Under the pieces are notes generated by a model. That model saw only the letters and a program-made list of their open reading frames with translations, was not told the origin of the DNA and made no database searches. From positions 1-17,828 of the forward strand of contig CAWIEK010000055.1 in assembly GCA_963835065.1 (NCBI GenBank): a stretch of DNA of 17,828 nt, given 5' to 3'. The first letter of the stretch is position 1. Each line of letters starts with the position of its first letter. The translations under genes were made by a program, and so were the position numbers. This DNA comes from an uncultured Chthonomonadaceae bacterium. GTDB lineage: Bacteria; Armatimonadota; Chthonomonadetes; Chthonomonadales; Chthonomonadaceae. Shown here piece after piece: positions 2,774 through 2,845 of the stretch.

Positions 2774-2845
2774 CTCCCTGTGATGGACTCGAACCATCAA
2801 CCCTTCGGTTAACAGCCGAATGCTCTGCCATTGAGCTAACAGGGA
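2774..2845 (-). tRNA. tRNA-Asn (anticodon GTT); CCA not encoded directly after the discriminator
   Basis: Sequence TCCCTGT TA GCTC AATGGCA GAGC A TTCGG CTGTTAA CCGAA GGGTT GATGG TTCGAGT CCATC ACAGGGA G folds into a complete cloverleaf. Confidence 0.97.

Follow-up and report, generated by a model that had tools for sequence, protein, structure and literature searches.

A tnpB gene with no accompanying transposase was found beside a tRNA-Asn gene in the window, the whole stretch of 17,828 nucleotides analysed here. Its predicted guide was identical to the tRNA-Asn allele that is standard in the bacterial family and mismatched the resident tRNA gene at two positions near the presumed target-adjacent motif (TAM). 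Judged from these sequences, a fixed, active TnpB probably cuts the family-standard allele and spares the recoded resident tRNA, a proposal that our preferred reading shares with its closest rival. In the preferred reading, to which we give a probability of roughly 0.45, the transposase-less tnpB would be an RNA-guided, free-standing homing nuclease, for which the tRNA polymorphism provides self-immunity and self-retention.

The window corresponds to contig C55 of the source assembly (G000, 8.0 Mb, 57% GC), in which overlapping haplotype contigs were present. All features of the locus lay on the minus strand. A sigma70-type tRNA promoter (2921–2950, TTGACA-18-TATCAT, 11 of 12 consensus matches) preceded the resident tRNA-Asn(GTT) gene (2774–2845, allele A26/G44/G45), which both ARAGORN and Rfam called as a normal tRNA. 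The long hairpin 3' of the tRNA (2706–2761, fold z −5.7) is probably the tRNA terminator and part of the host locus; a simple terminator scan made no call on it. Promoter and hairpin were also present in a congener, G002, and homology to this empty site stopped at 2705, which maps the left junction of the cassette. The tnpB gene (1418–2619) began 170–190 bases downstream of the tRNA gene. It was followed by the scaffold of the predicted omega RNA (3' part, 1386–1456), the predicted 19-mer guide (1367–1385) and a spacer (1332–1366) leading to a metallophosphoesterase gene. Contigs from two public sequencing runs (X5 and X6) departed from the window at 1331, the probable right junction of the cassette. 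Elsewhere in the window, a gene for a Bmp-family lipoprotein (5145–6294) occupied two frames, split near 5470–5490, with a Pfam match on the 3' part; since the sister contig C47 had no indel at 5470–5490, the break was common to both haplotypes. Intergenic repeats of a heptamer and a hairpin (3201–3289, 17017–17140, 580–697 and 4922–5126) recurred on many contigs of G000.

The tnpB product contained the Pfam domains HTH_OrfB_IS605, OrfB_IS605 and Cas12f1-like_TNB, as well as the RuvC D-E-D residues and a zinc finger. The motifs GIDVG, VE and RDxNAA, which make up the RuvC D-E-D signature, were present in proteins P0001 and P0002, and the triad was intact in both G000 and a second carrier species, G001. 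On C55 the gene was one base short near position 1775. The frame was open over 400 codons at the same locus on C47, and the absent base was present in contigs of public runs X2, X3 and X4, so the frameshift is most likely an assembly error. The frameshift was specific to C55, and its reading as real decay of tnpB was rejected.

The scaffold was predicted to fold into three stems and a pseudoknot, in which the loop GACTG (1449–1445) is complementary to CAGTC (1392–1388), and it ended in GTCAC (1390–1386). All five pseudoknot pairs, with covarying letters, were formed in 16 of 17 right ends of the family, the window locus included, and four of five in G001. The 17 related right ends finished in GTCAC or GTCAT and then continued with variable bases; together with the covarying full pairing in 16 of them, this makes the guide boundary firm. 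A right-end RNA scaffold with a pseudoknot, followed by a guide, is therefore predicted, as in an IS200/IS605 TnpB–omega RNA element. Matches to the TnpA domain Y1_Tnp in G000 were limited to contigs C42, C51, C68 and C49, with none on C55 or C47. Left-end motifs of the family were not found, by eye or by motif search, upstream of either tRNA-linked tnpB. Joining TAM and guide did not rebuild the empty site either, as the G002 sequence past the shared hairpin was unrelated to the guide.

Across 19 bases, the guide (1385–1367) and the resident tRNA-Asn (self protospacer, 2808–2790) were identical at 17, and the sequence TTAA (2812–2809), located in the anticodon loop, stood directly 5' of the match. 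The mismatches were A/G at 2803 and T/G at 2802, corresponding to guide positions 6 and 7, and thus lay where the original prediction had placed them, in the first two bases of the variable loop (Sprinzl 44–45). Assuming equal base frequencies, the chance of two or fewer mismatches is 5.8e-9 per site; for both strands of a 2-kb region it comes to approximately 2e-5, and to approximately 9e-8 if TTAA is required too. The match was of guide length (17–19 bases) and stopped in the T-loop. With up to three mismatches allowed, the G000 assembly contained the guide itself (twice), the resident tRNA (twice), a tRNA-Asn in an array on contig C49 (three mismatches) and nothing else. Copy counts in G000 are inflated by its overlapping haplotype pairs. 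The array tRNA-Asn had a GGGTT variable loop, and the proposal that a second chromosomal copy might be the true target was dropped on these grounds. For ten other right ends of G000, no guide match after TTAA was seen among the best matches listed (up to four per guide).

TTAA presumably serves as the TAM. It was found directly 5' of seven left ends of related elements that were picked by eye, as TTTAA in six and CTTAA in one. When the fifth base is counted, the tRNA presents GTTAA, as opposed to TTTAA at six of the seven inferred left ends of the TTAA type. In one group of family TnpBs (L097, L101, L106 and L119), the inferred left ends came after TTGAC, not TTAA.

A tRNA-Asn gene was retrieved from 36 of 42 family genomes. 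Its variable loop was ATGTT in 31 of the 36, and 20 genomes matched the G000 guide at 19 of 19 positions after TTAA. The guide equalled positions 39–57 of this family-standard allele, in agreement with the earlier idea that it reads as a valid tRNA-Asn allele. Apart from the two carriers, G000 and G001, which both lacked the ATGTT target, 31 of 34 family genomes kept ATGTT. The expected occurrence of such alleles in empty-site relatives was confirmed in G002: the promoter, tRNA and hairpin of its locus were orthologous to those of G000, tnpB was absent there, and TTAA was followed by a target that fitted the guide at 19/19 positions. Its tRNA differed from the resident one only at 2821, 2803 and 2802 (positions 26, 44 and 45). 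The sequence retrieved around each of the 31 ATGTT tRNAs gave no tnpB match (four of these loci extended less than 700 bases downstream), and tnpB was likewise absent beside five ATGTT tRNA genes of a second family.

The third difference, at 2821, is a change from G in the ATGTT allele to A in the resident, at Sprinzl position 26, the partner of position 44. The resulting change from G26/A44 to A26/G44 is a swap of a known tRNA tertiary pair, and for this reason the resident tRNA looks like a working allele. A26 accompanied every non-ATGTT housekeeping allele in the family survey. The suggestion of an element that begins at the anticodon loop and supplies a recoded tRNA 3' half was not upheld: everything from the 3' half of the tRNA through its trailer and the hairpin to 2705 was common to the empty-site genome G002 (and not shared with G001), and position 2821 lies 5' of the anticodon.

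The comparison of alleles between relatives with and without tnpB supported the original prediction in part: ATGTT prevailed in the tnpB-less G002 and the family at large, but the GGGTT allele, again with A26, also occurred in three genomes of one genus (g4) with no tnpB nearby. It was further seen in a contig of run X5, which held the exact 3' part of the resident tRNA and then, from 2763, 523 unrelated bases. The GGGTT allele alone therefore does not show escape; it may be older than the cassette or persist after its loss. The nearest sensitive allele was that of G002, approximately 80–85% identical, and none was seen in close relatives.

In the second carrier, the congener G001 (locus L077), a tRNA-Asn with a different hairpin was accompanied by a sister tnpB, the same scaffold and a guide. 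The nuclease gene thus lay beside the conserved target gene in both species with genome context (2/2). In both, the guide started exactly at the family right-end boundary. The two guides were identical at 17 of 19 positions, compared with 3 of the next 20 bases and with 53% identity between the two proteins. The G001 guide corresponded to a GGTGG form of the standard allele that was found in eight genomes. The resident tRNA of G001 mismatched its own guide at positions 4, 5, 6, 13, 14 and 18, and in its anticodon and T stems the changes compensated one another.

The TnpBs of G000 and G001 were placed as sisters (support 99/99, 20 rows) and grouped with P0088 and P0099 (support 93, 129 rows). 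They shared 53–61% identity, not far below the 65–75% between host proteins of the two genomes, and plain vertical descent therefore fits. On the sequences compared, vertical descent with loss in G002 and transfer are equally open.

Further carriers were sought with a pattern of the right-end/guide junction. It gave seven loci in the genome collection, of which only L077 was real, two in the viral collection, neither real, and 13 in metagenomes, none with tnpB or tRNA. A loose version matched 137 of 401 genomes of the phylum, mostly noise, and 30 fetched loci were without tnpB or tRNA; a tighter version matched 11 of the 401, all of them spurious apart from G000 and G001. These patterns miss right ends of other types and other guides. 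An alignment of the TnpB clade found no relative in viral contigs, and a plasmid search with TnpB gave seven records at 36–39% identity. In full-text literature, which included few subscription papers, no published case of a TnpB guide against a neighbouring tRNA gene was found, and the word tRNA was absent from the main text of PMC10691335, the supplements of which may list such loci.

Approximately 207 kb of G000 consisted of overlapping haplotype pairs (C55/C47/C26 and others) that were 97–99.6% identical. The cassette haplotypes differed by one SNP in 1648 bases (1253–2900), compared with a median of 11, and 7% of windows were equally low; as a sign of nuclease-biased inheritance, this near-identity is only weakly suggestive. 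The contigs of public runs that were compared covered parts of the tRNA and of tnpB, and the guide itself was covered by none. Close relatives in the public runs retained tnpB. Among the differences listed between the window and these relatives in tnpB, 18 of 22 (X2) and 14 of 22 (X4) were at third codon positions. A contig of X2, from a strain about 5–8% divergent, bridged the start of tnpB to tRNA position 2802. Close cover of tnpB was not seen in contigs of X5 and X6, which possibly derive from mixed organisms, and such a gap is not proof of absence. Two loose-end motifs from X5/X6 had no meaningful match in G000–G002 (one match with three mismatches, in G001). Contigs of X2 and X5 stopped matching at the same base, 2763, which is 11 bases past the tRNA end and resembles the ends of attachment-site duplicates in two family genomes, G015 and G408.

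For the TnpB to act as a homing nuclease, the omega RNA would have to be made and loaded, and the anticodon-loop TTAA would have to serve as TAM. ATGTT-type DNA would then be cut in the T-arm and the resident allele, with its seed mismatches, left uncut. Such discrimination agrees with the earlier expectation that TAM-proximal mismatches reduce cleavage: in the experiments with ISDra2 TnpB described in PMC10097598, double mismatches at positions 1–12 abolished cleavage in vitro. If a carrier and DNA of an ATGTT-type relative met in one cell, the cut allele would be lost or repaired from the carrier, and repair would copy the resistant tRNA and sometimes tnpB as well. A swap back to ATGTT would be punished as long as tnpB is present. 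The cassette probably goes back to an IS605-type element that inserted at TTAA, either in a copy of tRNA-Asn or in an attachment-site duplicate, of which only the guide-length part was later kept. The three states encountered, namely sensitive without tnpB, resistant with tnpB and resistant with other DNA, would fit a homing cycle. Counted against homing are the lack of a sensitive allele in close relatives, the GTTAA of the tRNA where related elements have TTTAA, and the number of species with genome context, which is two. The gene downstream of the locus differed among G000, G001 and G002, so that between species there is no homology on both sides from which tnpB could be copied.

The same nuclease could instead be kept by the host as a guard against integrative elements or phages that carry the standard tRNA-Asn, as attP or as a tRNA gene, with the own tRNA being immune. 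This is compatible with homing, and the two are not exclusive, but it appears less probable as the explanation of the locus. It would make the TnpB a sentinel with one guide, directed at a part of tRNA-Asn that integrating elements need and could hardly alter, with the essential tRNA of the host rewritten in two ways for immunity; we put this forward tentatively. In its favour, tRNA-Asn was an integration site in the family. In G015 the tRNA was immediately followed by a Phage_integrase gene, and a duplicate of 70 bp lay beside a recombinase fragment; G408 had a 62-bp duplicate. Each duplicate spanned TTAA and the complete protospacer; the allele was that of the G001 guide in one and that of the G000 guide in the other. 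Such duplicates were found in only 2 of 36 family genomes, however, neither of them in the genus of G000. A tRNA-Asn that mismatched the guide was present in the integrase-linked tRNA array of G000, and likewise in the array of the tnpB-less G002, so that the array speaks neither for nor against a guard. If the target kept arriving from outside, purifying selection on tnpB would be understandable even though close relatives are already resistant. In Thermus phages, Cas12r is directed against elements whose integration sites are tRNA genes (10.64898/2026.04.20.719267).

The search for the target in phages, which the original prediction had called for, gave a divided result. TTAA followed by an 18/19 guide match was found in 8 of 53 viral loci, within phage tRNA clusters, whereas the exact 26-base target was found zero times in the viral contigs. 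The eight matches had 35–41% GC, as opposed to 57% in G000, which counts against the guard reading. A search for tRNA-Asn in phages gave 965 records. Some phage tRNA clusters (L153, L184 and L185) contained a copy of the tRNA-Asn 3' half from the anticodon loop on; two such copies lay approximately 90 bases past the called tRNA-Asn and are possibly an interrupted gene or a duplicate.

Alternatively, the arrangement could be a relic. An IS605-type element would once have been inserted in a tRNA-Asn copy or an attachment-site leftover, the guide would be its old flank, and the alleles would have drifted or differed from the outset. The guide starts exactly where an insertion at TTAA would put it, GGGTT occurs without tnpB, and the TAM may require TTTAA. 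Immobility as such is common, at 89% of TnpB clusters in the main text of PMC10691335. We nevertheless consider a relic unlikely. The match to the tRNA ends at guide length, whereas the attachment-site duplicates of the family extend over 62–70 bases, and the guide was kept across a protein divergence of approximately 45% when the adjacent bases were not. Moreover, the open reading frame, the D-E-D triad and the scaffold were intact in both species, the differences listed from close relatives were biased to third codon positions, and both carriers depart from the allele of 31 of the 34 other genomes. Least probable is binding without cutting, in which the partial match would park TnpB on its own tRNA gene and damp transcription in the manner of TldR: TnpB-derived repressors are reported (PMC10705468) and the G000 resident retains TTAA and five matched seed bases, but both species have kept an intact RuvC triad, the G001 resident retains only three matched seed bases, the guides track the allele of relatives and not the resident one, and the site is within the tRNA, not at the promoter. 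An attR leftover was rejected as the present role of the guide, as the match ended in the T-loop and not at the tRNA 3' end, in contrast to the longer duplicates of the family; no Phage_integrase was found on C55 or C47.

TnpB guides normally correspond to the flank of the latest insertion. At this locus, two species have retained a guide to the same essential gene, although the gene itself changed in two structure-preserving ways. With homing as the preferred reading, the locus had its parts in common with IS605 TnpB and its layout in common with a free-standing homing endonuclease, and it was a full member of neither class, since TnpA, a left end and a conserved far flank were all lacking and the target was outside the insertion site. 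Shared with IS200/IS605 TnpB, as described for ISDra2 in PMC10097598, were the protein domains, the RuvC triad, the predicted right-end pseudoknot scaffold, the predicted guide directly after the right end and the presumed TAM 5' of the target. In contrast to these elements, the window cassette had no TnpA and no recognisable left end, its guide matched a conserved upstream gene and not the flank of its own insertion site, and self-discrimination would come from tRNA substitutions and not from the insertion splitting the target. TnpB is reported to retain transposons (10.1101/2023.03.14.532601), and TnpB-driven spread is reported as established for plasmids (PMC11870625).

In intronless homing, substitutions in a nearby conserved gene mark self and non-self, and the nuclease spreads into related populations; the free-standing homing endonucleases of phage T4 include SegF, and SegB, which cuts tRNA genes (PMC13565253). 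That source lists intronless homing as a process of phages and plasmids that co-infect a cell, not of chromosomes. The resemblance to these endonucleases consists of a nuclease beside a conserved gene, an own target allele that differs and an allele in relatives that matches, and in the case of SegB also of a tRNA gene as the target. Unlike them, the window system would be RNA-guided, it is chromosomal and has no conserved far-side gene between species, and its biased inheritance is hypothetical. Cas12r of Thermus phages is likewise a TnpB-like nuclease acting against tRNA-integrating elements, but it is phage-borne and works with a CRISPR array, the protospacers of which lie inside the elements and not in the tRNA or att site (10.64898/2026.04.20.719267). 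TldR, too, is a TnpB homologue that is immobile and has a conserved guide to a gene of the cell; it is reported to be nuclease-dead and to target promoters (PMC10705468), whereas the window TnpB keeps D-E-D and mismatches its own gene.

If cutting is allele-specific, the locus would be a natural RNA-guided allele drive or an attachment-site guard on a bacterial chromosome, and it would provide a concrete selective cause of tRNA polymorphism. Immobile but active TnpBs of unclear function are described in the main text of PMC10691335, and the arrangement found here is a possible explanation of why some of them remain catalytically intact. With two enzymes and three alleles, of which two are resident and one is sensitive, a test set is ready at hand.

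Other tRNA-linked features were observed in the family. The array on C49 comprised 16 tRNA genes (L002:5275–7287) with a Phage_integrase gene just after it, and included tRNA-Ile(TAT) as well as the second, mismatching tRNA-Asn; in the G002 stretch (L025:3907–6045), 13 tRNAs were called. At L136 (G257), a gene for an XhoI-type restriction enzyme and a methylase gene lay within 3 kb downstream of tRNA-Asn, in an island-like setting. An element of approximately 25 bases (GTCCTTCCCT...GGACGCCCG) was seen in several insertion sequence left ends (C5, C53 and C43 of G000; L097; L114), in the tRNA array and also upstream of tRNA-Asn in L025.
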